Shown here piece after piece: positions 2,974 through 64,000 of a DNA stretch of 64,000 nucleotides (position 1 is its first letter; each line of letters begins with the position of its first letter). Made by a program: the position numbers and the translations under genes. Source of the DNA: an uncultured Candidatus Saccharibacteria bacterium (GTDB lineage: Bacteria > Patescibacteriota > Minisyncoccia > JAHISW01 > Tagabacteraceae); assembly GCA_964601305.1 (NCBI GenBank), contig CAZRMW010000001.1, forward strand, positions 34,376-98,375, written 5' to 3'. The notes below the pieces were generated by a model. The model saw nothing but the letters and a program-made list of their open reading frames with translations, made no database searches and was not told the origin of the DNA.

Positions 2974-2992
2974 AGTGCCCAAAAAATTTACA

Positions 2993-3030
2993 ACACTCCA
3001 ACATTCTCAAGAATGTTGGAGTGTTTTTTT
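2993..3030. terminator. 32-bp palindrome ACACTCCAACATTCT..AGAATGTTGGAGTGT plus T-run; member of a repeated palindrome family (see 7401..7434)
   Basis: Perfect inverted repeat between convergent genes, followed by TTTTTTT. Confidence 0.6.
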
Positions 3031-3042
3031 ATGCAAAATAAG

Positions 3043-6000
3043 CTAAAACAACCCCTCCGGCGATGTGGTAGCTGTGTTTTCTATCCATTCAATAAGAGTT
3101 GCGGTGATAGCCGAAAGACCATCTCCAAGTACGCCGAGTAAATTGTTTTCAAAAGTAACATTACTTAAACTCGTCGTAGAATTTTCTACTACAACAGCTG
3201 CCTTCGTACCCCACGGCCCACTGTAGTTATGCTCTTCAAATCTCGCATTTTCTATACTCACATTTTCAGAATTTACAGCACGAATCCCATGAGGATAATT
3301 ATTTTTAAATAAAGCATTTGCTATCTGCGCTGTAGACCCTTCTAGCAAAATACCCGCTTTGTCTCTTCCTCCAGACATTACGCTCCCCGCATACTTCATA
3401 GTAAATCCACTTGCCACAAGAGATCCAGTTTCGGAAATATTTATCCCAGCAAACTGCCCAGCTTGAGGCATCGTAGATGTTTCATCGTTGTTAGAATCCC
3501 CACTTATCTCATCGTCATAAATACTTGTAAAAATTATGTCACTCGGATTCTGTCCATCTATTACAAAATTTCCGTTTACATTTAATGTTTTCTCTCCACC
3601 CTTTATTACCACTCCGTTTTCAATAGTTAATTGCGAAGATTCTACTACCGTCGGAGTCTCATATCCATTTAAATAATAAGGTATATCATTTGATTTTAAA
3701 GTTTTTGTTGAATTAGTATTAGTTAAATTTCCCCAAATATTAATGGAGTTGGGATTGTTATTTGACCCACTGTTTCCAGAAAAACTTCCCAGCTCTCCCG
3801 AGGAATAAATTGCACCTCCAGAATTAGAAGTAAAAGTATTGTTATTTGCGATTGTATTTGAATTGCTTAAATAAAGTCCTCTTAAATTTTCTAAAAAAGT
3901 ATTATTGTTTATTGTCGGCTCTCCATTTTCTGTGTATACACCATCAGCCTCATTGCCCTCAAAAACAGAGTTTGCAATTTGCGAATTAGAATTTTTTAAT
4001 CTCAAACCATAAACTTTTGAATATTTAAAACTGGAATTAGATACAGATATTTCTGGCCCCCAAGAGACAAGCAATGATTTATCAAAAGAGTTGTTATAAT
4101 ATTTTCCACCATAGCTAAAATTAGTATATTCAAAAATAGATCCATTTTCTGCATTTTCGTTTATGCAAATACCAAACCAATCTCCAGGATTAGGATTTTC
4201 TTGAGCACTCGTAAAAGCTATTGGCTCACTCTCTGTGCCTTGTGCCAAGATTTTTCCCAGAATATTAAACCCCGAATCTCCATTAAACTTAATTTCAACT
4301 CCAGGCTCTACGGTTAATAAAACTCCACTTTCAACAACTGCGTTTATATTGTCCACCAACACTGGATTGTTTAGTCTTCTTATTGTTAAATTTCTATCTA
4401 TATTTTTATTTATAGTTAGTATGCTATTTACACTATTTGCAAATTTCGGAGTACCTTTGTTTCCTAAAAAATCATTGTTTGTGTACCAGTTTTCTGTATC
4501 GTATCTTTCCATTGTATATTTATCTGTATCTCCTGCAGGCCACGCCCCCTCTGGTGTACTATCTATTGTTGTAGTAGCTGTCGAAGTAGCTTGCACCAAA
4601 ACTAATCTCTCTCCACTATTACTAAGCCCATTTCCAAAAGACCCTATATAATCTGCTTCCACATCTGGCACTGAGGTATCGTCCGTTCTTTCTATCAAAT
4701 AATACTCGCCCGACCCAAGAGTACCTGACAAATTTATATATGGTCCGTTGTCTGTTTCTGAAAAAAGTACCCAGCCATCCAAATCTATTCCGTTTTCTGT
4801 ATTATTAAAAAGTTCTATCCATTCATCGTAAGCCGAGTTGTCCGTACCCGCCCATGCGATTTCGTTTATTAAAATCGAATGCTCTGCAAAAACTTCTTCA
4901 GGTGTTTCAGGTGTCGTGCTTGCTGTTTCTGGTGTAGTCGTAGCAACTTCTGAAGTTGAATCTTCCTCTGGAAGTTCAACCTCGCTAATTGAGTCGTCTT
5001 CTATAACAGGCGCCTCCTGAGGATTGTTTGGGGAAGAAACACTTTTTGTTGCAACAACTATCGAGGTCGAACCTCTATAGCGAGGTTCAACCTCACTAAT
5101 TAAGTTGTTGTCTTTTGTGTCCGCCATTGTTTCCACAACTGCAAAAACAGCAGAAACCGCAGTATATTCTTTTTCCTGTTTTTGTGTAGCCCTTTGATTT
5201 GCTTGTTTTTCATCTTTTTCAAAGGTTGAATCTTTATCTTGAAAATTTAGCTTTGAAGTTGTACTTCCTTCAGGAAGTCCAACTTCGTTAATTAAATCAT
5301 TCGTTTGATCTTTTTTTTCTTTGTCAAAAACATCTTTAATTTTGTTGCCAACATTTTTTATTGCTCCCCAAAACCTTGAGCCACTACCCGGTAAAAAATC
5401 TTCTGCAATTGTTATGAGCGCTGTTTTAGGCACAGGCGGTTTTTCTAGTAACGATTCGTCGTTTCGAGCCTTCTCTACTTCTTGAAAGAATAAATTAATT
5501 GCCCCTGCCACGGATATGACTGCCTCACGAGATAAACGGTTCCAGTAGCCCTGGAGGATCGGTTTGTAATCTTCATTGTCGTCCTCCAACTCATACTCTG
5601 CCAACTTCTTTTCACCGTCTTTGTCCCATACCTCCTTTGTTCTTGCCAATTTAAAATAACTTCCATCTTTATCAACACCAAAGCCATATTCATCTCCATC
5701 TATTATTTCTGGCTTATTATACCTTTCATAGCCCTCGCCATTTGCAGTATCTTTACTTAAAAAATAATTATTAGAATAATTTGCTAAATAATCAAAATAT
5801 TCTTCTATGCTCTCAAGAGAAGCTGGCTCATAACTATTTAAGCTATCCGCAATTTTAAAATTTTCTATATTAAATTGTTTTGAAAAATTTTCAAGGGGGC
5901 TATCTCCAGGGTGTGGGTCATTTCTGGTGTGTTCTGGCACGGCCATATCTTCTAGTAAATGCAGAGTAAATCCAAGAGTATAAAACGCGTCTTTTTCATT

Positions 6001-6444
6001 TCCCTTTACGTACTCATAAATTGCTTTTTTCCATGCTTTGTTTCCTTTTGGCATATGAGTATTCATTTGTAGGCCTTGGCTTGTAGCCCACTGCTTTGCT
6101 GTGTTAAGTCCCCTATCCCCAAAAAGGCCTTCGTTGTAAACTGGATCATAAAAATGGTGCATCCATCTTGGTGGAGTGTCTTCGTCTATGGCCCCTTCTA
6201 TTATCCACTCTTTTTGTTTGTCTGTAATACTTCTCTCAAAATTAATATTATAAAAATTTATAGCTTCGTTTGTAAGTGCTGGATGAGTAGTTTTATCGTC
6301 CCAACTAAAAACAGTCTGAGCCCCAAAGCCCAAACTGCTTAAGTAAAACACAAATATTAAAATAAAATTTATTTTTCTGTTCATCCCACTAGAAATTTTC
6401 TTTTTCATGTTTTTAATTTTTTTATTTCTATTAGAGTAATTCAT
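3043..6444 (-). CDS. large secreted multidomain protein: signal peptide, Zn-dependent phospholipase C / S1-P1 nuclease-like domain, lamin-tail domain, right-handed beta-helix repeats
   Basis: N-terminal basic/hydrophobic signal peptide. WDDKTTHPALTNEAI, HHFYDPV and LHLLEDMAVPEHT match the Zn-PLC signature (W-x-x-E/D-x-H, HFYDP, LH-x-x-D). INEIAWAGTDNSAYDEWIELFN is a lamin-tail-domain signature. N-rich repeats (NNNTFLENLRGLYLSNSNTIANNNTFTSNSGG) are pectate-lyase-like beta-helix. Confidence 0.8.
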   Translation of the reverse strand: MNYSNRNKKIKNMKKKISSGMNRKINFILIFVFYLSSLGFGAQTVFSWDDKTTHPALTNEAINFYNINFERSITDKQKEWIIEGAIDEDTPPRWMHHFYDPVYNEGLFGDRGLNTAKQWATSQGLQMNTHMPKGNKAWKKAIYEYVKGNEKDAFYTLGFTLHLLEDMAVPEHTRNDPHPGDSPLENFSKQFNIENFKIADSLNSYEPASLESIEEYFDYLANYSNNYFLSKDTANGEGYERYNKPEIIDGDEYGFGVDKDGSYFKLARTKEVWDKDGEKKLAEYELEDDNEDYKPILQGYWNRLSREAVISVAGAINLFFQEVEKARNDESLLEKPPVPKTALITIAEDFLPGSGSRFWGAIKNVGNKIKDVFDKEKKDQTNDLINEVGLPEGSTTSKLNFQDKDSTFEKDEKQANQRATQKQEKEYTAVSAVFAVVETMADTKDNNLISEVEPRYRGSTSIVVATKSVSSPNNPQEAPVIEDDSISEVELPEEDSTSEVATTTPETASTTPETPEEVFAEHSILINEIAWAGTDNSAYDEWIELFNNTENGIDLDGWVLFSETDNGPYINLSGTLGSGEYYLIERTDDTSVPDVEADYIGSFGNGLSNSGERLVLVQATSTATTTIDSTPEGAWPAGDTDKYTMERYDTENWYTNNDFLGNKGTPKFANSVNSILTINKNIDRNLTIRRLNNPVLVDNINAVVESGVLLTVEPGVEIKFNGDSGFNILGKILAQGTESEPIAFTSAQENPNPGDWFGICINENAENGSIFEYTNFSYGGKYYNNSFDKSLLVSWGPEISVSNSSFKYSKVYGLRLKNSNSQIANSVFEGNEADGVYTENGEPTINNNTFLENLRGLYLSNSNTIANNNTFTSNSGGAIYSSGELGSFSGNSGSNNNPNSINIWGNLTNTNSTKTLKSNDIPYYLNGYETPTVVESSQLTIENGVVIKGGEKTLNVNGNFVIDGQNPSDIIFTSIYDDEISGDSNNDETSTMPQAGQFAGINISETGSLVASGFTMKYAGSVMSGGRDKAGILLEGSTAQIANALFKNNYPHGIRAVNSENVSIENARFEEHNYSGPWGTKAAVVVENSTTSLSNVTFENNLLGVLGDGLSAITATLIEWIENTATTSPEGLF

Positions 6445-6468: not shown

Positions 6469-6948
6469 TTAAATTTCTTCTATTTTCCAATTACCTGATG
6501 GGTAAAGAATAAAATCGACAGCGATCGGTTTATAAAATGAAAAATAGTCATCAATTACATTAGGTTCTTTGTTTGTTCTCAACACTTCATTCAATAACCC
6601 TAATAGATCAGGTAATTTTTTTGCTTTATTTAAATATTCCTTCCACTCCTCCTGCTTCTCAATTACAAAATACTTACTCGCCCGCTCAAAGTCCCCCTCC
6701 TCAACAGCGCTTATAAACATTTCCAAAGTTTCCTGTGGTGTTTTCCCTCCTATTTTATCTGCTTCCATTGCTTCCTGTTTTTCTTTTGCCTCCCTATCCA
6801 TTTGTTCTACAAAATCCTTCATATCCTTTCTCATTTTCCATACATCATACCTAACCAATCCAACTTCCAAAACAACAATCAAAGTCAAAATTATCGCAAT
6901 TGCCCAAAAAATTTTATGTGTTTTTGTTTTTATAAATATATCTTTCAT
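6469..6948 (-). CDS. hypothetical membrane-anchored protein
   Basis: 159 aa, single N-terminal TM; SD GGAGG upstream; probably co-transcribed with 3043..6444. Confidence 0.45.
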   Translation of the reverse strand: MKDIFIKTKTHKIFWAIAIILTLIVVLEVGLVRYDVWKMRKDMKDFVEQMDREAKEKQEAMEADKIGGKTPQETLEMFISAVEEGDFERASKYFVIEKQEEWKEYLNKAKKLPDLLGLLNEVLRTNKEPNVIDDYFSFYKPIAVDFILYPSGNWKIEEI

Positions 6949-7096
6949 AAATCTTGTCCGCCTCCGGCGGATTAATTAATAAAAACCTAGCAAGTATTAA
7001 CACAGTATGTCAACACCCGTCACTAATAATTTTATATTTCAATGTTCTAACCATTCCTCACACCCCACACAAAACATTCTAACATTCTATAGAATA

Positions 7097-7375
7097 TTAG
7101 AATGTTTTTATAAACTTCACAAATTTTTTACCATAAGGAGAAAGAAAATGCTCCACAGACCTACCTTTGTATTTTTTGTTTACAAGTCCAGCGAGCGTCA
7201 AACGCCTAGAATGCTGAGAGGCTGTTTTCATATGGCAATTAAGTTCATCTGAAATTTGATCTACCGTGATCCCTTCATTTTTATGAACCAAAAGCAATAT
7301 ATCAATCCTCCAATGATTAGCAGCGCCTTTAAAATGTCTTTCTAGTTGTTTTGATGTTTTTACTCTATTTTTCAT
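7097..7375 (-). CDS. winged-HTH transcriptional regulator (ArsR/SmtB-like)
   Basis: 92 aa; HTH segment ITVDQISDELNCHMKTASQHSRRLTLAGLV; flanked on both sides by related palindromes. Confidence 0.6.
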   Translation of the reverse strand: MKNRVKTSKQLERHFKGAANHWRIDILLLVHKNEGITVDQISDELNCHMKTASQHSRRLTLAGLVNKKYKGRSVEHFLSPYGKKFVKFIKTF

Positions 7376-7400
7376 GTTTTCATCCTACCACATCATATAA

Positions 7401-7434
7401 AATACTCCAACATTCTATAGAATGTTGGAGTATT
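7401..7434. promoter_or_regulatory. perfect 34-bp palindrome AATACTCCAACATTCTA|TAGAATGTTGGAGTATT, 26 nt upstream of the ArsR-like gene (candidate operator and/or terminator of the upstream gene)
   Basis: Perfect inverted repeat; near-identical to 2993..3024, with a degenerate nested copy at 7074..7106 overlapping the regulator stop codon. Confidence 0.45.
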
Positions 7435-7500
7435 TTAATTTGTTTAATCTGCGAAAAACAAAAAGCCGGTGGTAAAACCACCGACCCTATAATATATTTT

Positions 7501-8431: not shown

Positions 8432-9184
8432 CTATTTCTCGTACTCTCTACGGGTATTCCACCAAGCACAGTGTTCGCAATCTTTTCCAGAAGCCGGCAT
8501 CTCGCCACTCTCCAAGCATTTTTTGATTTCAAAAAGTTTTGGCTCCACCCAAGAGTCGTTGCCCTCATAAGGAATAAGCACTACATCAAATTCTATTTTT
8601 TTATCAAAAGATTTTTCGTCAGCCCGGCCCGTGCAATATACAAAATAACTAGTATCTGAAACTTTTAGCCCATTTTGCCTAAGAAGCCATTGGTACACTT
8701 CCATTTGTTTTTTGTAGCCCTCGTGCCATTTACCAGCAAGCTCTTTTACAGGCTCCGCCTTCGCGGTTGCTTTGTAGTCTACTACTATATACTCCCCGTT
8801 TTCATTTATCCAAAGGTCGTCTATGGCCCCAGACACAGTAAGCCCCGTAGGTTCATGCTTATACTCTACCCCTTCAAAGTTTTCTCGCCATGTATTTATT
8901 TTTTCGTGCTGTGCTGGTTTTACCTTGAGCTCGTATTCTTTCTGAAGTGGGTGCTGTGTGTTTTCTGCTCTATGAATATCAAACTCTTGTTTAAGCTGAT
9001 AGTCCACTGCACTATTTAAAAGAAAGGCTGGCAACGGCACTCTTTTTGTGCCAAGTTTATTGTCTATATAGAAACAGCGTGGGCACCCACAAAACAAGTC
9101 GATTTTAGATCGACTAAGCCTCCACTTGTCTCCACCGTAATTCCACATGGCACTTCTTTTAGAGTTGTATCCGTAATTTGTCAT
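8432..9184 (-). CDS. PD-(D/E)xK nuclease, Cas4/RecB-like (DUF83-type) with Cys clusters
   Basis: Motifs IDDLWINENGEYIVVDYKAT (D...E-x-K) and QMEVYQWLL (QxxxY), with N-terminal CGCPRC and C-terminal CEHCAW cysteines as in Cas4 Fe-S nucleases; no cas genes or CRISPR array nearby. Confidence 0.6.
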   Translation of the reverse strand: MTNYGYNSKRSAMWNYGGDKWRLSRSKIDLFCGCPRCFYIDNKLGTKRVPLPAFLLNSAVDYQLKQEFDIHRAENTQHPLQKEYELKVKPAQHEKINTWRENFEGVEYKHEPTGLTVSGAIDDLWINENGEYIVVDYKATAKAEPVKELAGKWHEGYKKQMEVYQWLLRQNGLKVSDTSYFVYCTGRADEKSFDKKIEFDVVLIPYEGNDSWVEPKLFEIKKCLESGEMPASGKDCEHCAWWNTRREYEK

Positions 9185-9438: not shown

Positions 9439-10647
9439 ATGAGTTTTCTATCTTCTACAAAATATTTTGACGGGAAAATTTCTCACGGCTTTGTGTCTCT
9501 TTATACAAGCAAAACCATCACAATGATATCTGGGGGTCTTTTGGGATTGTTCCTGCCGATATTTATTTACAACCTTTTAGGACAAAACTTTCAAAAGACG
9601 ATGTTGTTCTATGGAGCTGGCTATTTTTTATATGCAATTTCTTTGTTTTTGTTTGTAAGATTTTTAAATAAATTTGGTTTTAGAAGAGCTCTTCGAGCAA
9701 GCACATTTTTGGGTGCTCTCTATTTCACATTTTTTTATTTTATAGACGAAACTAACTATTCTTATTTTCTTCCTGCTATAATTGTTGTTATAACCTTATA
9801 TAGACTCAGTTATTGGCTCCCTTACCAGGTAGATTTTGCAAAATTTACAAGCAAAAAAAACAGAGGCAAGCAAATAAGCGCAATGAAAGCAACAAGAGAA
9901 GCTATTGGAATTTTTATCCCCCTGATTGCTGGGTTGGTAATAAAAAACTTTGGCTTTGACATACTTTTTATAGTAGCAATAATTCTTTATTTAGTTTCTT
10001 ATATCCCCTACCTTACTATTCCTCGCACAAAAGAAAGATATATGTGGAACTATAAACAAACTTTAGAAAATTTAATTTCTAAAAAAAACAGAAAACAACT
10101 TATAGCCTTTATGTCCGACGGTGCAGAAACTGCCATCTCTGCAATAGTTTGGCCTATTTTTATATTTCAAGTTTTAAAGGGTGATTTCCTAAAACTTGGT
10201 GCTCTTTCAACTTTAATAATTGCTGTTACCATGTTTTTGCAACTTATGATAGGAAAAAAATTAGACAAAACTGGTCACAAAAATAAAATACTAAAATTTG
10301 GGAGTATGTTTTCCTCTATAAGTTGGGTCATAAAAATATTTGTAGTTTCGGCTTTTCATGTTTTTGTTATTGGCGCATTTCACAACATAATGAGAATATT
10401 TACGCGAATTCCTTTCGATTCTCTTACATACGAAATAGCGGCCGACGAAGGCCACTATGTAGATGAGTTTACTGTACTTCACGAAATAGCAGTATCTACA
10501 GGCAGAGTGCTAATGGTAATTTTTGCAATAATTATCTCCTTATTTTACCCAATTCAATATGTGTTTATCATTGCTGCAGTTTCAGCTATTTTCCTAAATC
10601 TTCTTCGCCCTCATCTTGCTGATGAGTCTTTAAGTACTTCTGTCTAA
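9439..10647 (+). CDS. polytopic membrane transporter (MFS-like)
   Basis: 402 aa, about 10-12 TM helices; 3' end overlaps the convergent 10586..13027 gene. Confidence 0.5.
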   Translation: MSFLSSTKYFDGKISHGFVSLYTSKTITMISGGLLGLFLPIFIYNLLGQNFQKTMLFYGAGYFLYAISLFLFVRFLNKFGFRRALRASTFLGALYFTFFYFIDETNYSYFLPAIIVVITLYRLSYWLPYQVDFAKFTSKKNRGKQISAMKATREAIGIFIPLIAGLVIKNFGFDILFIVAIILYLVSYIPYLTIPRTKERYMWNYKQTLENLISKKNRKQLIAFMSDGAETAISAIVWPIFIFQVLKGDFLKLGALSTLIIAVTMFLQLMIGKKLDKTGHKNKILKFGSMFSSISWVIKIFVVSAFHVFVIGAFHNIMRIFTRIPFDSLTYEIAADEGHYVDEFTVLHEIAVSTGRVLMVIFAIIISLFYPIQYVFIIAAVSAIFLNLLRPHLADESLSTSV

Positions 10648-13027
10648 TCTCTGACTCCACTTCGCTGGCTGGTCTACCATATTTTATAGCTGACAATTCT
10701 TTCACCTTGCTTGCCACCTGAGAACTAGTTTCTTCAGGAGGAATTGTTTGTATATTAAAAGGCTTTGTAGATTCGCCACCAACTAAAAGTTTTAGATACG
10801 CATTGTAGTTTGGTATGTTTGTTAAGTCTTCTCTTTCAAAAACCGGCTCAAACATTTTTGCTAAAAATTCTGCATCTTCTTCTCCCACTCTAAATACAGC
10901 AAGTGATCCAACGTTTCCAAAAACAGCTTTTTTTATTTCTTCGTCTAGCTGGCCAATAAATTGGTGTGCAATAGTAAGATCTAGTCGATACTTTCTTGCT
11001 TCAGACAAAATCATAGCAATAGAGTTTGTGGTAATATTTTGAAATTCGTCTATGTAGAAGTAAAAATCTTTTCTTGTGCTTTCTGGTATATCTACGCGCG
11101 ACATTGCTGCCATAAAAATTTTGCCCACAAGAAGCATACCCAAAAGATTTGCGTTTAATTCTCCAAGTCGGCCTTTGGATAGGTTTATTAGTAAAATTTT
11201 ACCATCATCCATTATTTCTCTGAAGTTGAGCGATGTGTTTTCTTGCGCTAAAATTGGCCTCATTATTTCGTTGCTTAAAAATGTATCGAATTTGCTGGTG
11301 ATATAAGGAACAATATTTGCAAGAGCTGCTTCTCCGCCAGCTTTCCCCGCAGTTTCTTTCCAAAAATTATTTACTACCGGATTGTTACTTTTTGAAAGTT
11401 TTAGTTCACGATAATCTTCATCTGTTAACACTCTGGAAATTTCTAAAAGTGTGTTACCGCTCTCTGGATCTTCCATCACAAGGAGTGTGGCGTTTCTAAA
11501 ATATTGCTCAAACATAGGGCCACCCGCCACAGACATATCGTAAAGTTTATCAAAAATCTCTAAAAGTTCGTTTACTATAAAAGTTTTCTGCTCCGGATTC
11601 TTTTTGTCGTACTCAAGCATATTTAATCCAAAAGGTCTTCTTGTGTCTGCAGGATTGAAATATACTACATCTTCCCATCTTTCTTCAGGAATTTGACCTA
11701 AAACATCTTCGAGGTCAGAACCGTGTGGATCTATAAAACACACGCCATGCCCTGCTTTTATATCTTGAAGAACCATATTTTTAAGAAGGGCAGACTTACC
11801 AGTACCAGTCTGACCAATTGTATAAAAATGCCTTCGCCTATCGTCTTCTGAAAAATGTATGTCTGTTTCTTTTCCTCTGAAGAAATTTTTTCCAAGTACA
11901 ACGCCTTTTTGTTGTAAACTTACAGGAGGCTCTGTATTTCTTGTTTTTGAAAGTTTTACTTTTGGAGCAGAAAGACCATAGGAAGGAAAATGAAAAATAC
12001 TTGTAAGCTCTTCTGTGTTTAAATGAAGAGATTCTTTTTCATTAAACAATCTAAAAGAAAAATTATGGAAAAAGTTTTTTAACACAGATCCCTTTAAATC
12101 GTTTGCAACAAAAGCATTGCCCATTACAGAAGAATATTGAGAAAAAGCGCTTTTAACTTGGTTTAAAATACTTTGTGATCGTTCTGTAGTTTGTGAAGAA
12201 ACAACTAGCCGAATATTTGCCCTCATTATTGGCTTCGCAATTTTTTTATTTAAAAAACTTAAAATTTCTGTATTTGCTTCTCTTTCCATAGAAGAAAGCG
12301 CAGACACACCATCTTTGTTTGAATGAATAGTACCCCCCGTGGCCACTTTAAGAAACGAATGTTGCAAACTTTCCCCACCTTTTAAAGCAGATTTTACTGG
12401 CTCTCCAGAATTAATGAGGTTAATAGATTTTTGTACACTTTTTTTAAAATTTGTTTCTTGGGGATCTATTATTATTTGAAGAGAGGCTCCTTCTTTATCT
12501 CTTTCTAAATCAGAAAAAGTGTTCACTACCACTTCAAGTGGGCTTGTTTCTAATTCTTCGTATGTTTTTATTGGCAACACATCGCTAGTTTTTAGTTTTA
12601 GTGTGGCCCCTGCGTTTGGCGCGCCATATTTAAAAATATTATAATCCGCTTTTTCTTCGCGAATTTCTGCTGTTGGGAAAACGGCACGGACTTGATTTTG
12701 AAAAACAGAAATTTTGTCTCTCGGTACAGCCACATAAAAATTAATCTCATTTTCTGTAGACGGAGAAACTATTTCTAGAGAAAAATAAGAACCTAAGTTT
12801 AGCATTCCCATATAAAACTGTTCCATTTTAGAAACAAGCTCTTTGAAAGGCTTTTCTTCTTTTTGGCTTCTTGGGAAACTGACTTCGTACAAAGAAAGAT
12901 CGAGCGCATGCCTTAGATCAGAATCTCTTTTTTGCCTCAAAACAAAAAACAAAAGAAGTCCTATTAAAATAAAAAATAGAGGAAGTATAACAAAAGGACT
13001 AAACAAAAGATCTAATGATTTTGACAT
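10586..13027 (-). CDS. VirD4/TraG/TraD-like type IV coupling-protein-family ATPase with N-terminal TM anchor and about 400-aa unknown N-domain
   Basis: Walker A IGQTGTGKS followed by CFIDPHGSD; C-terminal ARKYRLDLTIAHQFIGQL...VFGNVGSLAVFRV matches the TraG-D_C (TraM-recognition) region; TM helix near the N-terminus. Confidence 0.7.
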   Translation of the reverse strand: MSKSLDLLFSPFVILPLFFILIGLLLFFVLRQKRDSDLRHALDLSLYEVSFPRSQKEEKPFKELVSKMEQFYMGMLNLGSYFSLEIVSPSTENEINFYVAVPRDKISVFQNQVRAVFPTAEIREEKADYNIFKYGAPNAGATLKLKTSDVLPIKTYEELETSPLEVVVNTFSDLERDKEGASLQIIIDPQETNFKKSVQKSINLINSGEPVKSALKGGESLQHSFLKVATGGTIHSNKDGVSALSSMEREANTEILSFLNKKIAKPIMRANIRLVVSSQTTERSQSILNQVKSAFSQYSSVMGNAFVANDLKGSVLKNFFHNFSFRLFNEKESLHLNTEELTSIFHFPSYGLSAPKVKLSKTRNTEPPVSLQQKGVVLGKNFFRGKETDIHFSEDDRRRHFYTIGQTGTGKSALLKNMVLQDIKAGHGVCFIDPHGSDLEDVLGQIPEERWEDVVYFNPADTRRPFGLNMLEYDKKNPEQKTFIVNELLEIFDKLYDMSVAGGPMFEQYFRNATLLVMEDPESGNTLLEISRVLTDEDYRELKLSKSNNPVVNNFWKETAGKAGGEAALANIVPYITSKFDTFLSNEIMRPILAQENTSLNFREIMDDGKILLINLSKGRLGELNANLLGMLLVGKIFMAAMSRVDIPESTRKDFYFYIDEFQNITTNSIAMILSEARKYRLDLTIAHQFIGQLDEEIKKAVFGNVGSLAVFRVGEEDAEFLAKMFEPVFEREDLTNIPNYNAYLKLLVGGESTKPFNIQTIPPEETSSQVASKVKELSAIKYGRPASEVESEIRQKYLKTHQQDEGEEDLGK

Positions 13028-13393: not shown

Positions 13394-13440
13394 AAGCTTA
13401 TTATATCACAAATTCAAACACTTTTGGTATATCTACACCA

Positions 13441-13467
13441 AAATAACGGAGTTGAACTCCGTTATTT
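13441..13467. terminator. palindromic hairpin AAATAACGGAGTTGAACTCCGTTATTT (repeated at 17431..17458)
   Basis: Perfect inverted repeat plus T-run downstream of the 13477..14673 gene; second copy 4 kb away. Confidence 0.5.
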
Positions 13468-13476
13468 TCTGTTATT

Positions 13477-17395: not shown

Positions 17396-17430
17396 TATAG
17401 CAGATGTCGTGTTCCATTTTTAAAATAACA

Positions 17431-17548
17431 AAATAACGGAGTTCAACTCCGTTATTTTAAATATTAGCTAATATGGTGAAAATCACCAGAGATTTCACCA
17501 TATTAAACAAAAAACCGCCAGGCCTTTTCAGGTTCTGGTGGTTTAAAT
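17431..17548. repeat. composite of three hairpins: AAATAACGGAGTTCAACTCCGTTATTT palindrome, conserved 54-nt ATATGGTGAAA hairpin, and terminator
   Basis: Repeat copies of 13441..13467 and 16583..16636; T-runs on both strands. Confidence 0.45.
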
Positions 17549-18141: not shown

Positions 18142-18179
18142 TTAAAATCAGCGAGACTAGCGAGGTTCAACCTCACTAG

Positions 18180-19199
18180 TTAATTTGTTAACTCCGGCTG
18201 ATAAAACTTATTTAATTTTGTTTTTAATTGTTTTACTGCAACTATTTCATTGTCTAACAAATACACCTTTAAAACTAATCCCCGCATAGTCTCCTCTGAA
18301 AAATTTTGATCGAAGATAAAATTACCCAAACTATACGCTATCACCCCTCCATTATAACTTTCTATTTCTTGCACAACATGCGGATGGTGCCCTACTACTA
18401 TCTTCGCCCCATTATCTATTGCTGTCCTAGCTAAATATTTTTGTCTTTCATTAGATTTGTTTTTATATTCCTCACCAAAATGAAAAGACACAACAAGAAC
18501 ATCTACACCTCTACTTGCACGCTTTATAATATCTTCAAAATTATTTTTTATAGATAAAATTCCTGAACTATCAGCACCCGCCAAAAACCAATCCGCCCCT
18601 ACATCAGAAAACCCAACAAAACCAATTTTAACTCCGTCTCTTTCTAATATTTTTACAGCACTAGCATCTTCAAAATCCATCCCTCCTCCAACAGGCAAGA
18701 TCCCTTTGTTTTTTAACCTAAAAATATTTTCCTCAAACGCTTCCTTCCCCCAATCTGCAATATGGTTATTAGCAACAGACAGCACATCGAACCCAGCTTC
18801 ATAAAGTACATTGAGCACATCCGGATTAAACTTAAAAGAATAGACACTTCCAACATCTTTACCCGCAAGAGAAATTGGTCCCTCTAGATTTCCAAAAGCA
18901 ATGTCGGCCTCTTTTAAAAAATCAACATTGTTAAAAAGAAAAGAAAAATCACCATTAAAATTTTTAGATATTGACTCTTCTACTCCCCTGCTAAGCATAA
19001 TATCACCAACAAAAACAAGTTCCACACTTTTTGTGTTTTTAAGAGTAGCGGTATTGTTTTTGTTTGAAAAATAAAAAAACGAAGACGAACCAGACACCCT
19101 ATTAAAATCACCTAAAAAATAAAAAACACTCATTGGAACAAAAAAACCCAACAACAACACAAAAGCCCCCCAAACTATTTCTTTATTTTTTATTTCCAT
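18180..19199 (-). CDS. CapA-family metallophosphoesterase (poly-gamma-glutamate/capsule biosynthesis-type)
   Basis: VGDIMLSRGV, LSVANNHIADWG and GHHPHVVQ metallophosphatase motifs typical of CapA/PGA_cap; N-terminal TM. Confidence 0.8.
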   Translation of the reverse strand: MEIKNKEIVWGAFVLLLGFFVPMSVFYFLGDFNRVSGSSSFFYFSNKNNTATLKNTKSVELVFVGDIMLSRGVEESISKNFNGDFSFLFNNVDFLKEADIAFGNLEGPISLAGKDVGSVYSFKFNPDVLNVLYEAGFDVLSVANNHIADWGKEAFEENIFRLKNKGILPVGGGMDFEDASAVKILERDGVKIGFVGFSDVGADWFLAGADSSGILSIKNNFEDIIKRASRGVDVLVVSFHFGEEYKNKSNERQKYLARTAIDNGAKIVVGHHPHVVQEIESYNGGVIAYSLGNFIFDQNFSEETMRGLVLKVYLLDNEIVAVKQLKTKLNKFYQPELTN

Positions 19200-26501: not shown

Positions 26502-27611
26502 TTAAAGAGTAAATTTATCTAACCAGCTTTTCATACTAGATTCTTCTGTTCTAACAATTGTAGGAATATCATCTACTTTTTCTTCATTCTCTTTTATCTC
26601 GTCTCCCACCTTTTCCTTTTCTTGCTCTGGTTCTTGCTCGGAACTTAGACTGTCTTTTTCTTGAGGTTGAACCTCCTTTGGCGGTTCAACCTCGCTAATT
26701 GAATCCGTCGTCGTTAGAATCTCTTCAATCTCCCCTGTTTCTTGAGGCACAGTACCTTCAGCAACAACAGCAGCACCTACTTTCATTAAAAAGTTTTTTA
26801 GATCATCCTCAGAGAAAAACTCCATAGAAATTTTTTTAACAGGTCCCTTTTTCTCAACAGAAACTCTTGTTCCCAGAGCATCTGAAAGTTTTCTTTCCAA
26901 ATTGCCTGCTTCTGGATCTTCTCTTCTCTCCAACTTTATTTTAGCCTTAGTTTTATTTTTAAGAATTTCACGCGCGAGATGCTCTGTAGCCCTCACATTC
27001 ATTTTTCTAAAAATAATTTCTTTGTATAATTCTTTCTGATCATCTTCGTGCTTTATTAAACTTAAAAGTGGCCTCGTGTGCCCTTCTCTAATAAGCCCTG
27101 CTTTTAGCCCTTCTTGCATATCTTCCGGCAAGCTCAAAAGTCGAATAGTGTTTGAAACAAATTCTCTACTCTTACCTACTTTTAGGCCAACTTCATGATG
27201 GCGCATTTTAAAATTGTCCACCAATTGCTTAAAAGCTACAGCTCTTTCTATTGGACTTAAGTCTTCTCTTTGTATATTTTCTATTAAAGCAAGTTCTAAT
27301 TTTACTTGATCTGAAGGTTCTTCTCTAATAATTACTGGCACTTGAGTAAGCCCCGCAATTTGAGACGCACGCCACCTTCTTTCTCCTGCAATAATTTCAT
27401 ATTCTATTATAGTGCCTGTTGGCACTTCTTTTTCTCGACGGATAACTACAAGTGGCTGCAAAACGCCGTATTGCCGAATAGATTCTGAAAGCTCGTTTAG
27501 CTTGTCTTCATTAAAAATACTACGAGGCTGAAAAGTATTTGGCTTTATTTTGTCTACTTCAACAAAAAAAACCCCGCTTTCTTTTCTTATTCTTGGAAGT
27601 TCGTTGTTCAT
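26502..27611 (-). CDS. parB: ParB/Spo0J partition protein with acidic low-complexity C-terminal tail
   Basis: GERRWRASQIAGLTQVPVIIRE ParB box; start at MNNELP (27611); tail region contains an inserted palindromic element (TDSISEVEPPKEVQPQ). Confidence 0.85.
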   Translation of the reverse strand: MNNELPRIRKESGVFFVEVDKIKPNTFQPRSIFNEDKLNELSESIRQYGVLQPLVVIRREKEVPTGTIIEYEIIAGERRWRASQIAGLTQVPVIIREEPSDQVKLELALIENIQREDLSPIERAVAFKQLVDNFKMRHHEVGLKVGKSREFVSNTIRLLSLPEDMQEGLKAGLIREGHTRPLLSLIKHEDDQKELYKEIIFRKMNVRATEHLAREILKNKTKAKIKLERREDPEAGNLERKLSDALGTRVSVEKKGPVKKISMEFFSEDDLKNFLMKVGAAVVAEGTVPQETGEIEEILTTTDSISEVEPPKEVQPQEKDSLSSEQEPEQEKEKVGDEIKENEEKVDDIPTIVRTEESSMKSWLDKFTL

Positions 27612-29629: not shown

Positions 29630-29660
29630 AAAGCCCTTGCCTTATTGGCAAAGGGTTTTT
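29629..29660. terminator. terminator hairpin AAGCCCTTGCC-ttatt-GGCAAAGGG plus T-run
   Basis: GC stem plus TTTTT immediately after the stop of 29312..29629. Confidence 0.5.
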
Positions 29661-29674
29661 ATTATACAAATACA

Positions 29675-31750
29675 ATGAAATATTATATTTTTACATTTGG
29701 GTGTGGCGCCAACCACGCTGACAGTGAAAGAATCGCCAGAAAATTGAAAGCCCTCGGCCACAAAAAAGCAGTTTCTTCCAAAGAGGCTAGTTTAATAGTG
29801 CTCAATGCCTGCTCTGTTAGAAAATCTGCTATAGATAGAGTTTATGGCAAAGTAAAAAATCTAAAAAACAAGCAAATTATACTAGCAGGCTGTCTCCTTG
29901 ATTCAGATAGAAAAAAATTAGAAAAAAAAGTAAAAGCTATTTGGCATCCAGACGAATATTTCGATTTATCCCCCATAAACGAAACTTCTTTTCGTGCGCT
30001 TATACCAATCACAAAAGGTTGTAATAATTTTTGTTCGTACTGTGCTGTGCCCTACACACGAGGAAAAGAAAAATCTCGCCCAGCAAAAGACATAATCAAT
30101 GAAATTAAAGAATTAATAAAAAATAATTATAAAGAAATATGGCTGTTGGGACAAAATGTAAATAGCTATAAATCTGGGAAAACAAATTTTCCAAAACTTC
30201 TTCAGAAAATAAACAAGATTGAAGGTAATTTTTGGATAAAATTTACTTCCCCTCACCCAAAGGATTTCTCCAACGAATTAATACAAACTATAAAAAAATG
30301 TGAAAAGGTTACCAACTACATAAACCTGCCTGTTCAATCTGGGGACAATGAAATTTTGAAGAAAATGAATCGAAAATATACACGCCAGCACTACATTAAG
30401 CTTGTAAACAAAATTAAAAAAGCTATTCCAGATGTAGCAATTTCTACAGATACTATCGTAGGATTCCCTGGAGAAACACGCACTCAATTTAAAAACACTC
30501 TAGATTTGTACAAAAAAATTAAATTCGATATGGCTTTTATTTCACAATACTCCCCTCGCACAGGCACCGTATCCGCACGAACTATGAAAGACAACATAAA
30601 ACACATAAAAAAAGAAAAGCGCGACAAAGAGCTTACAAAAGTATTAGCCAAATATTCGCTCGAGAAAAATAAAAAATTAGTTGGGCAAACTATAAAAGTT
30701 TTAATTGACTCACAAAAAGACACTAATTTTTTTGGCCGCACAGAAGGCAACAAAATAGTTAAAATAAATAAAACTGATTCTATAAGTATAGGAAAATTTG
30801 TAGATATAAAAATAACAAAAGCTACCTCTTGGAAGCTGGAGGGAGAAATCGCTCCTACAAAAATTATAGTAGTTTTGGGCCCCACAAGCTCTGGAAAAAG
30901 CGACTTAGCTGTAGATATAGCTCTTCAATTCCCTTCTGAAATTATTTCTGCAGATTCTAGGCAAGTTTATAAACACATACCTATCGGTACAGGGGCTATA
31001 ACCAAAAAAGAAATGAAGGGTATTTCCCATCATTTGCTAGGTTTTGTAAATCCCAAAAAAACATATACTGCAATAGATTTTAAAAAAGATGCAGAAAAAG
31101 CTATAAAAGAAATTCTAAACAAAAACAAAATACCAATAATATGTGGTGGCACAGGGTTTTATATACAAACACTTTTAAGTGGCAATAATTTACCAAAAGT
31201 AAAACCAAACTGGCCTCTTAGAAAAAAAATGGAGAAAAAAACAGCAGGCCAACTTTTTAAACAACTTCAAAAGCTCGACCCCAAACGCGCTAAAAACATA
31301 GATTCAAAAAACAAGCGGCGTTTAATTCGTGCTATCGAGATTGCTATCAAATTAACGAAGTCGGACTTCGATAGTTCACTACCGAAATCCGACTTCAATA
31401 GTTGGGATGTGCTGTATTTAGGTATAGAAAGAAAAAGTGGTAATTTAGAAAAACTTATCAGAAAAAGAATTTTGGGACTTATAAAAAGAGGGCTTTTGGC
31501 AGAAGTAAAAAATTTAAGAAAGAAAAAAGTCTCCTGGAAAAGAATAGACGAACTAGGTTTTGAGTATAAATACCCAGCTCAATATATCCGCGAAGAAATA
31601 AATAAAGAAGAAATGGTAGAAAAAATACTTACAGGAAATAATAAGTACGCAAAAAGACAGATGACTTGGTTTTTAAAATATACCCCAAAGACAATTTGGG
31701 TAAAAAATTCTAAGGAAGCTATGAAATTATCTAAAAAATTTTTAGACTAA
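29675..31750 (+). CDS. miaB-miaA: fusion protein: MiaB-like radical-SAM methylthiotransferase (MTTase-N, radical SAM, TRAM) fused to MiaA tRNA dimethylallyltransferase
   Basis: Start MKYYIFTFGCGANHADSE (MTTase N-terminus Cys), LNACSVR, AGC, CNNFCSYCAVP radical SAM, TRAM region; then IIVVLGPTSSGKSDLAVDIAL (P-loop), ISADSRQVYKHIPIGT, HHLLGF = MiaA. Single continuous 692-aa ORF. Confidence 0.8.
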   Translation: MKYYIFTFGCGANHADSERIARKLKALGHKKAVSSKEASLIVLNACSVRKSAIDRVYGKVKNLKNKQIILAGCLLDSDRKKLEKKVKAIWHPDEYFDLSPINETSFRALIPITKGCNNFCSYCAVPYTRGKEKSRPAKDIINEIKELIKNNYKEIWLLGQNVNSYKSGKTNFPKLLQKINKIEGNFWIKFTSPHPKDFSNELIQTIKKCEKVTNYINLPVQSGDNEILKKMNRKYTRQHYIKLVNKIKKAIPDVAISTDTIVGFPGETRTQFKNTLDLYKKIKFDMAFISQYSPRTGTVSARTMKDNIKHIKKEKRDKELTKVLAKYSLEKNKKLVGQTIKVLIDSQKDTNFFGRTEGNKIVKINKTDSISIGKFVDIKITKATSWKLEGEIAPTKIIVVLGPTSSGKSDLAVDIALQFPSEIISADSRQVYKHIPIGTGAITKKEMKGISHHLLGFVNPKKTYTAIDFKKDAEKAIKEILNKNKIPIICGGTGFYIQTLLSGNNLPKVKPNWPLRKKMEKKTAGQLFKQLQKLDPKRAKNIDSKNKRRLIRAIEIAIKLTKSDFDSSLPKSDFNSWDVLYLGIERKSGNLEKLIRKRILGLIKRGLLAEVKNLRKKKVSWKRIDELGFEYKYPAQYIREEINKEEMVEKILTGNNKYAKRQMTWFLKYTPKTIWVKNSKEAMKLSKKFLD

Positions 31751-39507: not shown

Positions 39508-40725
39508 TTATCTCACAGAAGAAATTCCTTTTAATTTTAAAATAATATCTGGCAAAATTTTTAATACATAGTCTACTTCTTTTTTTGTAGTCTCTTTGCC
39601 CATCGTAAATCTAAGCGAACCATGAGCATATTCATGTCCCATACCAATCGCACGTATCACGTGTGAAGGCTCCAAACTATCCGAAGTACACGCCGAGCCC
39701 GTAGAGCAAGCCACGCCCTTAGCATCAAGATATAGCACCATTGCTTCTCCCTCCACACCACGTACAGATATATTTACATTATTAGGAAGCCTATCTTCTC
39801 TTGAACCATTTAAAACACTGTTTGGTATCGTTTTTAATAATTTATCTATAAAATAATCCCTAATTCCAATAAGTCTTTTTGATTCTTTTTCTTTATTTTT
39901 TTGAACTAATTCAAGCGCTTCTCCAAAACCCACAATTCCAGATACATTTTCCGTACCAGACCTTAAGCCCATTTCTTGCCCACCGCCTACGACCATCGGA
40001 TCTATTTTAATTCCTCTTTTTTTATAGAGCATTCCTACACCCTTTGGCCCATATATTTTAGAACCATTTAAAGTCATTAAGTCTACACCCAATTTCAAAA
40101 CATTTAGATCCAAATAAGCCGGTGCTTGCACAGCATCTGTATGTATCAGTGGAGTTTGCAGGTTGTAGGTTGTAGGTTGTAGGCTTTTTTTGAAATTTCT
40201 GATTATTTTTGCGATTTCACGAATTGGCTGTATAGCACCAATTTCATTGTTTGCATACATTATAGAAACCAAAACAGTCTCTTTTCTTAAAGATTCCTTT
40301 AATTGTTTCAAATCTACAATGCCATTTTTATCTACATTTAAATAAGTAATTTCCCAGCCACTTTTTTCTAATCTTTCACAAGCATGAAGCACAGCGTGAT
40401 GCTCTATTTTTGACGTAATAATATGCTTGACACCCTCTCTGTTGGAAGTCGGACTTCCAACAGAATTGGCTATGCCGAAAATTGCTAAATTATCACTCTC
40501 TGTGCCACCGCCAGTAAAAATAATCTCGTCTGAATGGGCGTTTATTGTCTGTGCCACTTTTAATCTAGCCTCCGAAATTGCTTTTTTGGCTTCCCTGCCT
40601 TCTTCATAAATAGAAGATGGATTGCCAAAAACATCGCTAAAAAACGACTCCATTGCTTTTTTAACTTTTGGATCTAAATATGTGGTAGCTGAATGATCTA
40701 AATATATCCTTTTATCTTTATTCAT
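39508..40725 (-). CDS. iscS: cysteine desulfurase (class V aminotransferase, IscS/NifS)
   Basis: YLDHSATT, LNGSKIYGPKGVGMLY (PLP-Lys), SGSACTS (catalytic Cys loop); start at MNKDKRIY (40725). The upstream 33 codons of the track ORF are a repeat element. Confidence 0.85.
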   Translation of the reverse strand: MNKDKRIYLDHSATTYLDPKVKKAMESFFSDVFGNPSSIYEEGREAKKAISEARLKVAQTINAHSDEIIFTGGGTESDNLAIFGIANSVGSPTSNREGVKHIITSKIEHHAVLHACERLEKSGWEITYLNVDKNGIVDLKQLKESLRKETVLVSIMYANNEIGAIQPIREIAKIIRNFKKSLQPTTYNLQTPLIHTDAVQAPAYLDLNVLKLGVDLMTLNGSKIYGPKGVGMLYKKRGIKIDPMVVGGGQEMGLRSGTENVSGIVGFGEALELVQKNKEKESKRLIGIRDYFIDKLLKTIPNSVLNGSREDRLPNNVNISVRGVEGEAMVLYLDAKGVACSTGSACTSDSLEPSHVIRAIGMGHEYAHGSLRFTMGKETTKKEVDYVLKILPDIILKLKGISSVR

Positions 40726-40790: not shown

Positions 40791-40816
40791 TGAGTAAGTT
40801 TGAGCGAGGTCCAACC

Positions 40817-41410
40817 TCACTCATTTAAAATTTTGTCGATTAGAGCGGCCGTTTTATCGACAGTTTTAACCGGATTATTATAAAAATTATACCGCACAAC
40901 CCCCTTTTTGTCGACAATGACAAGGTGGGGCCAACCTCCTAACCCATACGAAGCTGTCGCCTTTATAACTCCAGACCCATGTTGTTTTTTGCTAACAATC
41001 AAGACCGTCGATAAAAAAGGTCCAAACTTTGTCTTAAACCCTTCAAACTCTTGAGGGTTTTTTGATGTCCACGGCACGCCCACAACTTTCACATCCTCGC
41101 GCGACTCATACTTTTCCGCCAGTTTATTCAGAACTTTGACCTGCTCACGGCAGAGAGGCGCACCAGGTCACCAGAAAGCCAAAACAGTAACACTCCCTTT
41201 AGAAAACTCGGAGAATTTCACATTGTCTCCGGTATCAATATTGGTTGCCGTAAAATCCGGCGCCATTTTGTCCACTGCGGAATTTGTTTCAACAACAACC
41301 ACCGGAGTGTCCTCTTCCACGGAAGTATTGAAGGCACCTGCTGTGCCAACAAAAAGAAGTGAGAAAATCGCCATCGCCAGAATCGTTAGAGTTAAAAGTC
41401 TCGTTTTCAT
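40817..41410 (-). pseudogene. disrupted thioredoxin-fold (TlpA/AhpC-TSA-like) secreted protein gene, GC-rich
   Basis: N-terminal part (signal peptide ...APDFTATNIDTGDNVKFSEFSKGSVTVLAFW) stops at an in-frame TGA exactly where the redox motif is expected (FW-TGA-PGAPLCREQ). C-terminal part (VKVVGVPW...GWPHLVIVDKKGVV) is in another ORF. GC content clearly above its neighbours. Confidence 0.5.
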
Positions 41411-63005: not shown

Positions 63006-64000
63006 TTATATTGTTTCTGGAGTTGTTGTAGAAACTGGTTCCTCAACAACATGCTCTTCGTATTCGCAACTTAGATCATCTTCTGTTGCGCTTTCATCGT
63101 GATTTAAGGCATCTGGATCCATACAGCCCAAAATCAGCTCGGGTTCTTGCTCCTGAATTAATTCAGCCTGCCCCGTTAAATCCGTAGGATTCTTCGGGGT
63201 ATTTAATTCAGTAGCAGTAGTCGTGGAGGTCGTTCCTTCAATTAACGAAGTTGGACTTCCCACATCCTGCGGTGTGTGAACTCCAACTTCAACAATTCTT
63301 GTTGTTGTCCCTACATTCCCCGCTTGATCTTCAGCAATAAAAGTAATTACATAAGTAGTTGTGCTAGAAGTATCTAAGCTTAATTCGTTCGGATACATCT
63401 CTTCTCCACCATCAATGCTTACTTTATACCCAAGGTTGTCGTTTACATTGTCTGTTACTGTTGCCCCCATATCGCTATATGTGCTACCTACTTCTATTTT
63501 TGCAGGGTTATTTCCAAGGAGAATTATGATTGGAGACTCAACGTCAACACTGTCTGTATTTTCATTGATTATTGATTCATTAGATATTGATTGATCATTG
63601 ATTGTTGAAGATTGATCATTTTTAAGCATTCCCTTCAACTCTGCCAATTCCTCTTTATTCAAACAAACTTCTCCACCCTCTTCCCCAATACATATTTCTT
63701 CTCTAGCCAAAATTCTATTAGCTACAAAAGCTCCGTTTAATTCTTGATTTGTTATAAATTCTTCCACTGATCCACCAAGAGAAAGCGAGTTTAATTCATT
63801 TTGAAGAACTTCTATCATCTCCTGTTGCTCTTTTATAGCCTCTAAGTTAAGGGCTGTTAATTTTTGATAATCTATCATCTTATATCCTTGCATATCCTCA
63901 TAAACCAATTCTGGGAAAAGCACTTCCACTTCCTGGGCAATCAAACCTGTTTGGCGACCATCCCCTAAAAATTCTGTGTGAGAATTTGTTTTATCCCATT
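63006..64000 (-). CDS. surface protein (5' end outside window) containing a phage tail-fibre/endosialidase-type intramolecular chaperone (peptidase S74-like) segment followed by a DUF5011/Ig-like domain
   Basis: GLIAQEVEVLFPELVYEDMQGYKMIDYQKLTALNLEAIKEQQEMIEVLQNEL matches the S74 chaperone helices; PIIILLGNNPAKIEVGSTYSDMGATVTDNVNDNLGYKV...AEDQAGNVGTTTRIVEV is DUF5011-like. The reading frame stays open upstream of the track's start to the window edge. Confidence 0.5.
   Translation of the reverse strand, partial: WDKTNSHTEFLGDGRQTGLIAQEVEVLFPELVYEDMQGYKMIDYQKLTALNLEAIKEQQEMIEVLQNELNSLSLGGSVEEFITNQELNGAFVANRILAREEICIGEEGGEVCLNKEELAELKGMLKNDQSSTINDQSISNESIINENTDSVDVESPIIILLGNNPAKIEVGSTYSDMGATVTDNVNDNLGYKVSIDGGEEMYPNELSLDTSSTTTYVITFIAEDQAGNVGTTTRIVEVGVHTPQDVGSPTSLIEGTTSTTTATELNTPKNPTDLTGQAELIQEQEPELILGCMDPDALNHDESATEDDLSCEYEEHVVEEPVSTTTPETI

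Follow-up and report, generated by a model that had tools for sequence, protein, structure and literature searches.

A conserved Patescibacteria gene pair encodes a predicted secreted protein with a zinc phospholipase C-like domain and a small membrane-anchored partner

The locus

The window is the whole stretch of DNA analysed, 64,000 nucleotides (nt) of contig CAZRMW010000001.1 (assembly GCA_964601305.1, positions 34,376 to 98,375) from an uncultured Candidatus Saccharibacteria bacterium. Near its start, at 3043..6444 on the minus strand, lies an open reading frame (ORF) of 1133 amino acids (aa), whose position and length agree with those given in an earlier sequence-only reading of this DNA. 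The best homologs of the protein are found at E 5e-90, which takes the ORF far beyond chance. Five modules follow one another from the N-terminus: a signal peptide, a phospholipase C (PLC)-like domain, a linker, a lamin-tail domain (LTD) and a right-handed β-helix; with the small gene directly upstream, the large gene forms a conserved two-gene cassette. The features of the locus are:

6469..6948, minus strand: partner gene, 159 aa, 24 nt upstream of the large gene on the same strand
6304..6444, minus strand: signal peptide, aa 1-47, with a K/N-rich n-region, an h-region at 24-41 and predicted cleavage between VFS and W48
5440..6303, minus strand: Zn-dependent PLC-like phosphodiesterase domain, aa 48-335
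4888..5439, minus strand: disordered E/T/S-rich linker, aa 336-519
4465..4887, minus strand: lamin-tail domain, an Ig-like β-sandwich, aa ~520-660
3046..4407, minus strand: Asn-rich right-handed parallel β-helix (pectin-lyase fold), aa ~680-1133
2992..3025, minus strand: terminator-like hairpin with a 15-bp stem, 18 nt past the stop codon of the large gene

The N-terminus had been read as a signal peptide placed ahead of an enzyme domain, and this is borne out by hydropathy; aa 24-46 are the sole hydrophobic, transmembrane (TM)-like segment of the protein and end directly before W48, with no further TM stretch or C-terminal anchor in the 1133 aa. In the family alignment the residue preceding aromatic position 48 is A, S or G in 37/37 members. 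An aromatic residue after A/S/G has the appearance of a signal-peptidase site, the use of which would expose position 48 as residue 1 of the mature protein. The N-termini of the homologs align from residue 21 onward, and M21 may be the true start of the ORF instead of M1.

The PLC-like domain

The domain at aa 48-335 has the all-α core of the PLC/P1 fold, to which are added a β-hairpin insertion (253-285) and a long C-terminal helix (291-328). A phmmer search of the full 1133-aa protein against the PDB returned no matches. The family profile matches the PLC of Bacillus cereus (PLC-Bc) in the PDB at E 5e-5, and no nuclease at E<=10; hhalign gives a probability of 95% over 85 columns to PLC-Bc versus 9.6% over 27 columns to S1 nuclease, the sequence of the latter having been confirmed against 5fb9. 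These two comparisons place the domain on the PLC side of the PLC/P1 superfamily, and the fold proposed in the sequence-only reading is retained. The Pfam model Zn_dep_PLPC (PF00882) matches 14/26 homologs at E<0.01; S1-P1 (PF02265) has no Pfam match at E<=1 for the protein, nor any among the homologs. NCBIfam holds no model matching either the PLC-like domain or the upstream partner. As judged by sequence, aa 48-335 is a divergent branch of the Zn-PLC/P1 superfamily on its PLC side; by structure as well as by sequence, its closest relatives are phospholipases C, which makes cleavage of phospholipid head groups the most likely chemistry.

Profile alignments equate H97, H162, D166, H172 and E185 of the window protein with H69, H118, D122, H128 and E146 of PLC-Bc, respectively; none of the five varies among 26 close and 37 long, diverse family members. 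The N-terminal ligands of PLC-Bc, W1, H14 and D55, could not be aligned to the family by hmmsearch --max. H54, at the start of helix 53-68, and D89, at the C-terminal end of helix 75-88, are also invariant and are the putative equivalents of H14 and D55 by helix topology, not by residue-level superposition. The Zn1/Zn3 ligand set (Asp55, His69, His118, Asp122) therefore has a counterpart throughout, with D89 assigned to Asp55 by topology. The conserved candidate zinc-binding His and Asp positions anticipated by the sequence-only reading are thus present, as are two of the three motifs it named, HFYDP (97-101) and LHLLED (161-166); the third, W-x-x-D-x-x-H, had the wrong spacing, the actual first motif being W48-D-D-K-T-T-H54 (W-x5-H). 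A further motif, P-x-H172-T-R174-N-D176-x-H178, is found in 175/182 sequences of the family.

The C-terminal tail

Two folded modules lie beyond the linker, and both had been correctly named before. The LTD is matched by Pfam LTD (PF00932) at 43.2 bits, above the gathering cutoff of 34.3, and its model is matched by Foldseek to the tail of lamin B1 (3jt0, 3umn) with probability 1.00 and a TM-score of 0.59-0.61. The second module shows the fold of a right-handed parallel β-helix and is matched by Pfam Beta_helix (PF13229) at 45.1 bits with a cutoff of 25.9; it is rich in asparagine, at 14% overall and 19% in the core. Its similarity to pectin-lyase-fold lyases and hydrolases (PL6, GH87, tailspike depolymerases) amounts to an identity of only 8-16%. 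The LTD and β-helix probably bind (or cut) surface glycans.

In most family members the linker and the LTD are separated by an extra Cys-containing Ig-like module (consensus EC..S.S...CL.AT.T..L.W.S). This module is missing from the window protein, which at this place (aa ~500-520) has the third of the hairpin repeats described below and a T/E/P-rich stretch.

The partner gene

The 159-aa partner is predicted to begin with a TM helix, which is followed by a charged coiled segment and then by a DUF4878-like domain of ~95 aa. Conserved in the domain are the motifs ADTYGGKTPQETLxMFIxAVEKGDYELASKYF (also written ADxxGGKTPQETLxMFIxAVEEGDFExASKYF) and YPSGxWKIxEI (also YPSGNWKIEEI). In 72/80 related loci the gene next to the PLC-like gene on its upstream side, on the same strand, is a homolog of the partner; the gap has a median of 57 nt and is often <60 nt; at least two of the loci without it end at a contig edge. 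Independent clustering of the ORFs around the 80 loci recovers the partner in 73 of them and no other broadly conserved neighbour. The partner is conserved at 41% mean column identity. Pfam DUF4878 (PF12870) scores the window partner at 21.3 bits, under the cutoff of 24.1, and matches 9/23 partner homologs at E<0.01 (best 1.4e-6); one homolog in the databases is annotated as a DUF4878 protein. Standalone homologs of 150-190 aa number 915 in a database search, with no fusions among the matches listed, and the partner profile has insignificant matches only in the PDB. The terminator-like hairpin behind the large gene gives the two genes the look of one unit. The pairing of the two genes is absent from the sequence-only reading.

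A second palindrome family, distinct from the linker repeats described below, has 18-20-bp stems and the core CTCCAACATTCT..AGAATGTTGGAG and is found in the window at 2990-3027 (spanning the coordinates of the cassette-end hairpin), 7071-7108 and 7398-7437. All three palindromes are intergenic and perfect or near-perfect, and they look like bidirectional terminators.

Size and distribution of the family

The large protein is a member of a major, unannotated family of Patescibacteria. Of 1.84 billion cluster representatives searched with the profile, 7,301 match at E<=1e-3 and 1,060 still do so at E<=1e-30. Median length among the best 150 is 1,232 aa, and their match nearly always starts within the first ~25 residues. 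In a species scan with one genome per species, the total of which is a lower bound, at least 570 species genomes encode a relative, nearly all of them Patescibacteria. Almost all labels in the scan are Nomura-, Azam-, Wolfe-, Yonath-, Yanofsky-, Jorgensen-, Magasanik- or Sungbacteria, Paceibacterota or 'Patescibacteria group'. With this many species and clusters, the protein is not an idiosyncratic one-off effector. Relatives are named 'hypothetical protein' in databases, and no published description of the family was found in literature on PLC with Patescibacteria, the Candidate Phyla Radiation (CPR) or LTD, or on PF00882 with Parcubacteria.

Some records are labelled 'Omnitrophota', 'Legionellaceae' or 'Gammaproteobacteria'. 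A wider range was considered on this basis and rejected, as misbinning or mislabelling is more likely; the Omnitrophota and Legionellaceae records are metagenome-assembled genome contigs of 2.1 kb and 5.7 kb, respectively, and the others are automatically labelled third-party assemblies.

The architecture is widely shared. Among 37 long representatives, the LTD is present in 36/37 and Beta_helix in 25/37, 17 of the representatives also having a NosD match; some contain additional Ig-like modules. Family members are 25-48% identical overall, yet the metal ligands (the position of PLC-Bc His142 excepted) and about 30 further residues are invariant. The nearest ortholog, from a single-cell genome, is 53% identical in the domain and colinear from end to end save for the linker; the exact window protein is also found on groundwater-type metagenome contigs in ENA and JGI.

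Proposed mechanism

With moderate confidence, the large protein is proposed to be a tri-zinc phosphodiesterase that is secreted and targeted by a glycan-binding tail, its most probable activity being that of a phospholipase C. It would be exported through Sec, and a signal-peptidase cut after S47 would leave W48 as residue 1. In PLC-Bc and P1 nuclease, residue 1 ligates zinc via its free amine; in the same manner, the free N-terminus, H54 and D166 would hold one of three zincs, D89, H97, H162 and D166 the second, while the third would be bound by H172, E185 and, probably, H178, which is specific to the family. The reaction would then be hydrolysis of a phosphodiester bond, the likeliest target being the glycerol-phosphate bond of membrane phospholipids, with diacylglycerol and the phospho-headgroup freed from the membranes of neighbouring or host cells. 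The flexible linker of ~180 residues would tie the enzyme to the LTD and β-helix, which would position it on a glycan-covered target envelope. An N-terminal anchor on the enzyme would be incompatible with catalysis, for which the N-terminus has to be free; most plausibly, the putatively co-transcribed, membrane-anchored DUF4878-like partner docks or restrains the enzyme at the producer's own surface.

The closest known proteins are B. cereus PC-PLC (1ah7) and the broad-range PLC of Listeria monocytogenes (8cqm), both of PF00882. These are single-domain Firmicutes enzymes of ~245 aa; the window protein adds ~800 aa of linker, LTD and β-helix as well as a membrane-protein partner, has an extra β-hairpin insertion and long C-terminal helix within the domain, and has W-x5-H at its start in place of their W-x12-H. 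The clostridial α-toxin (1olp, 1ca1) also has a second domain, a rigidly attached Ca-dependent PLAT/C2-like module, whereas the β-sandwich of the window protein is a lamin-tail domain on a disordered 180-aa tether and is followed by the β-helix.

Several observations weigh against phospholipase C activity. The Zn_dep_PLPC score of the protein, 22.6 bits at full length and 25.7 for the isolated domain, is under the gathering cutoff of 26.8, and the equivalence of H54 and D89 is topological, as stated above. Position 1 of the predicted mature protein is W in the window protein but Tyr, instead of the canonical Trp, in 36/37 relatives. The column of His142, a canonical Zn2 ligand, holds Gly or Asp (27 G and 8 D of 37); H178 (or D176) of the invariant HTRNDxH motif may replace the missing ligand from another position in the loop. 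In the same motif, the invariant polar residues R174, D176 and H178 replace the lipid-site stretch A130, F132 and N134 of PLC-Bc and may suit a non-lipid substrate. Finally, LTDs are best documented beside extracellular nucleases such as ExeM of Shewanella and Xds of Vibrio (PMC6085458, PMC6746945). These resemble the window protein as secreted or surface-retained phosphodiester hydrolases with an LTD and long unstructured linkers; they differ in that the catalytic domain is of the EEP type and joined by an OB-fold, the LTD is N-terminal, and there is no β-helix and no reported partner gene.

Alternative explanations

Because of the polar R174, D176 and H178, the missing His142 and the occurrence of LTDs beside nucleases, a P1-like nuclease or nucleotidase stays a serious rival, although it is considered unlikely. 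Under this explanation, the protein would be an extracellular P1/S1-like nuclease/3'-nucleotidase that breaks down nucleic acids from the environment or a host, and the resulting mononucleotides would be salvaged by a cell auxotrophic for nucleotides. S1/P1 nucleases (5fb9, 1ak0, 3w52, 8qjl; PF02265) belong to the same superfamily and have a tri-zinc site with an N-terminal Trp; the short spacing from W to the first His is common to them and the window protein. They are extracellular or surface enzymes that serve nucleotide salvage. Surface class-I nucleases have such a role in purine-auxotrophic trypanosomatids. The profile comparisons described above, which find PLC-Bc and no nuclease, favour the phospholipase.

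Less probable still is an antagonistic, membrane-lytic PLC toxin directed against a host or competitor, with the small upstream protein as its immunity factor in the manner of Tle/Tli-type pairs. The strict adjacency of enzyme and small membrane protein (72/80 loci, gaps often under 60 nt) agrees with such a pair, as does the partner domain, which the TM helix in its sequence predicts to face outward, where the enzyme acts; a tailspike-like targeting domain also fits, and a role in breaching host envelopes has been proposed for secreted phospholipases of CPR (PMC8080830, PMC11665869). The explanation fits poorly with single-copy, phylum-wide conservation: there is no paralog of the 1133-aa protein in the 64-kb window, and the pair persists across at least 570 species with the partner at 41% mean column identity. 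Toxin-immunity pairs are usually patchy, polymorphic and multi-copy. Pfam also gave no secretion-system marker or polymorphic-toxin architecture.

It is improbable that the protein is a phosphodiesterase of phosphate-containing envelope glycopolymers (teichoic acids, phosphoglycans) that remodels the wall of the producer or the host, with the β-helix recognising the polysaccharide. No member of the PLC/P1 superfamily is known to have glycopolymer activity; the 180-aa flexible linker makes an active site common to both domains unlikely, and since Beta_helix is scored in only 25/37 representatives, the catalytic domain appears independent of the β-helix. A non-catalytic surface adhesin or S-layer-like protein, with the PLC-like domain kept as a binding module only, is highly improbable, as the invariance of the other metal ligands and about 30 residues at 25-48% identity points to an active site and not a scaffold.

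The preferred explanation is the one proposed above, a secreted phosphodiesterase with three zincs that most probably acts as a phospholipase C. The sequence-only reading, which had suggested a secreted membrane-lipid or nucleic-acid hydrolase acting as a host-interaction effector, is as a whole partly supported.

The linker and its hairpin repeats

The linker had been described as S/T/E-rich and interrupted by palindromic elements, and the description is accurate. It contains 12% E, 11% T and 9% S, has a pLDDT of ~30 across aa 342-520, gives no tblastn match in any of the 80 related loci and fails to align even with the closest ortholog. A 22-nt repeat with the consensus TTAATTAGCGAGGTTGAACYTC (also written TTAATTAGYGAGGTTGAACYTC; designation TTAATTAGYGAGGTTGAAC) occurs five times in the window versus 0.01 expected, and three of these copies are in the linker; its 13-nt core occurs 18 times versus 0.5 expected. 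Folding of the copies as DNA yields hairpins, whose z-scores range from -2.8 to -6.9. The repeats within and outside the gene are:

5240..5295, minus strand: copy 1, in-frame, encoding LINEVGLPEGSTTSKL (aa 384-399); dG -11.8 kcal/mol, z -6.8
5050..5103, minus strand: copy 2, in-frame, encoding LISEVEPRYRGSTSIV (aa 448-463); dG -11.9 kcal/mol, z -5.9
4940..4992, minus strand: copy 3, in-frame, encoding SISEVELPEEDSTSEVA (aa 485-501); z -2.8
18156-18180, 26663-26702, 40801-40823 and 63240-63295: GAGGTTGAACCTC-core hairpin repeats outside the gene
31353-31373 and 40438-40464: weaker candidate GAGGTTGAACCTC-core repeats outside the gene

The peptide encoded by the repeat, [SN]EV[EG][LP][PR], is present three times in the 1133-aa protein and in 0/181 homologs, and the linker repeats appear to have been inserted into the gene. 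Outside the gene, in-frame copies contribute to the C-terminal tail of ParB (SISEVEPPKEVQPQ), the N-terminus of a class-V aminotransferase (MSEVGPRS) and a surface Ig-like protein (IVEVGVHTPQDVGSPTSLI); one intergenic copy directly follows the stop codon of a PGA_cap gene. The same hairpin is thus in-frame in several unrelated genes and absent from orthologs, which suggests selfish or structural DNA in a CPR genome that is similar to the Rickettsia palindromic elements (RPEs). RPEs are reportedly (Ogata and colleagues, 2000) short hairpin repeats dispersed in a reduced genome that lie in-frame in unrelated genes and add a peptide at tolerant places; they are about 100-150 nt, while the elements here are 25-55 nt, with ~8 convincing copies in 64 kb.

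No RAYT/IS200-type transposase that might mobilise the palindromes is present in the 64-kb window. In 23/80 related loci an ORF of the IS200/RAYT-like Y1-transposase type lies just upstream of the cassette; an example is that of locus L003 at 4685-5392 on the minus strand, where the HIYNRG... motif was read by eye and a 70-aa fragment has no Pfam match. A third hairpin family, AAAATAACGGAGTTGAACTCCGTTATTTT, is present in the window at 13440-13468 and 17430-17458 as two mutually reverse-complementary copies. These hairpins have a GTTGAAC centre in common with the in-frame repeats, and the two types may share an origin or a binding protein.

Other features of the window

On one side of the cassette, an ORF with a bifunctional-nuclease domain is located at 1391-1969. 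On the other side, an 813-aa protein with the domains of a type IV secretion system (T4SS) coupling protein (TrwB_AAD_bind, TraG-D_C) is encoded at 10586-13027 on the minus strand; its ORF overlaps the end of a major facilitator superfamily ORF at 9439-10647 on the plus strand and is near a PD-(D/E)XK nuclease gene at 8432-9184. T4SS have been proposed as a route of nucleotide or DNA uptake in Saccharibacteria (PMC11665869). A 701-aa ORF at 29645-31750 on the plus strand contains MiaB-type domains (UPF0004, Radical_SAM, TRAM; aa 12-402) and a MiaA IPP-transferase domain (aa 440-676); it seems to fuse two enzymes that act consecutively in the modification of tRNA-A37. Of the 47 ORFs of at least 150 aa, 41 are on the minus strand, and the GC skew is negative in all 2-kb bins; both are consistent with a single replichore arm with heavy co-orientation.

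Significance

Patescibacteria/CPR make up a large share of bacterial diversity. According to a recent perspective, they are without lipid and nucleotide synthesis, their mechanisms of lipid breakdown and uptake are unidentified, and the source of their nucleotides is unresolved (PMC11665869). For a CPR predator, a role of secreted phospholipases has been suggested solely on the basis of annotation (PMC8080830). What is new here is that a divergent branch of a known superfamily comes in a conserved architecture of its own and with a dedicated partner; the Zn-PLC/P1 superfamily would be extended by a third, very large and unannotated branch with an altered third metal site and Tyr for Trp at position 1. 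More tentatively, the cassette may be a phylum-wide machinery with which Patescibacteria of the Parcubacteria type take lipid building blocks (or nucleotides) from neighbouring cells; the β-helix would attach to glycans of the host surface as a phage tailspike does, the tethered tri-zinc enzyme would cleave phospholipids of the host, and the partner, at the membrane of the symbiont, would hold the enzyme, gate it or receive its products. This larger picture is doubtful, though the family itself, predicted to be secreted, retaining a putative catalytic metal-ligand set, conserved across at least 570 species and accompanied by a fixed membrane partner, is a concrete and clonable candidate that can be tested as PLC versus nuclease. 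It is a possible route by which lipid- and nucleotide-dependent ultrasmall bacteria harvest their building blocks.

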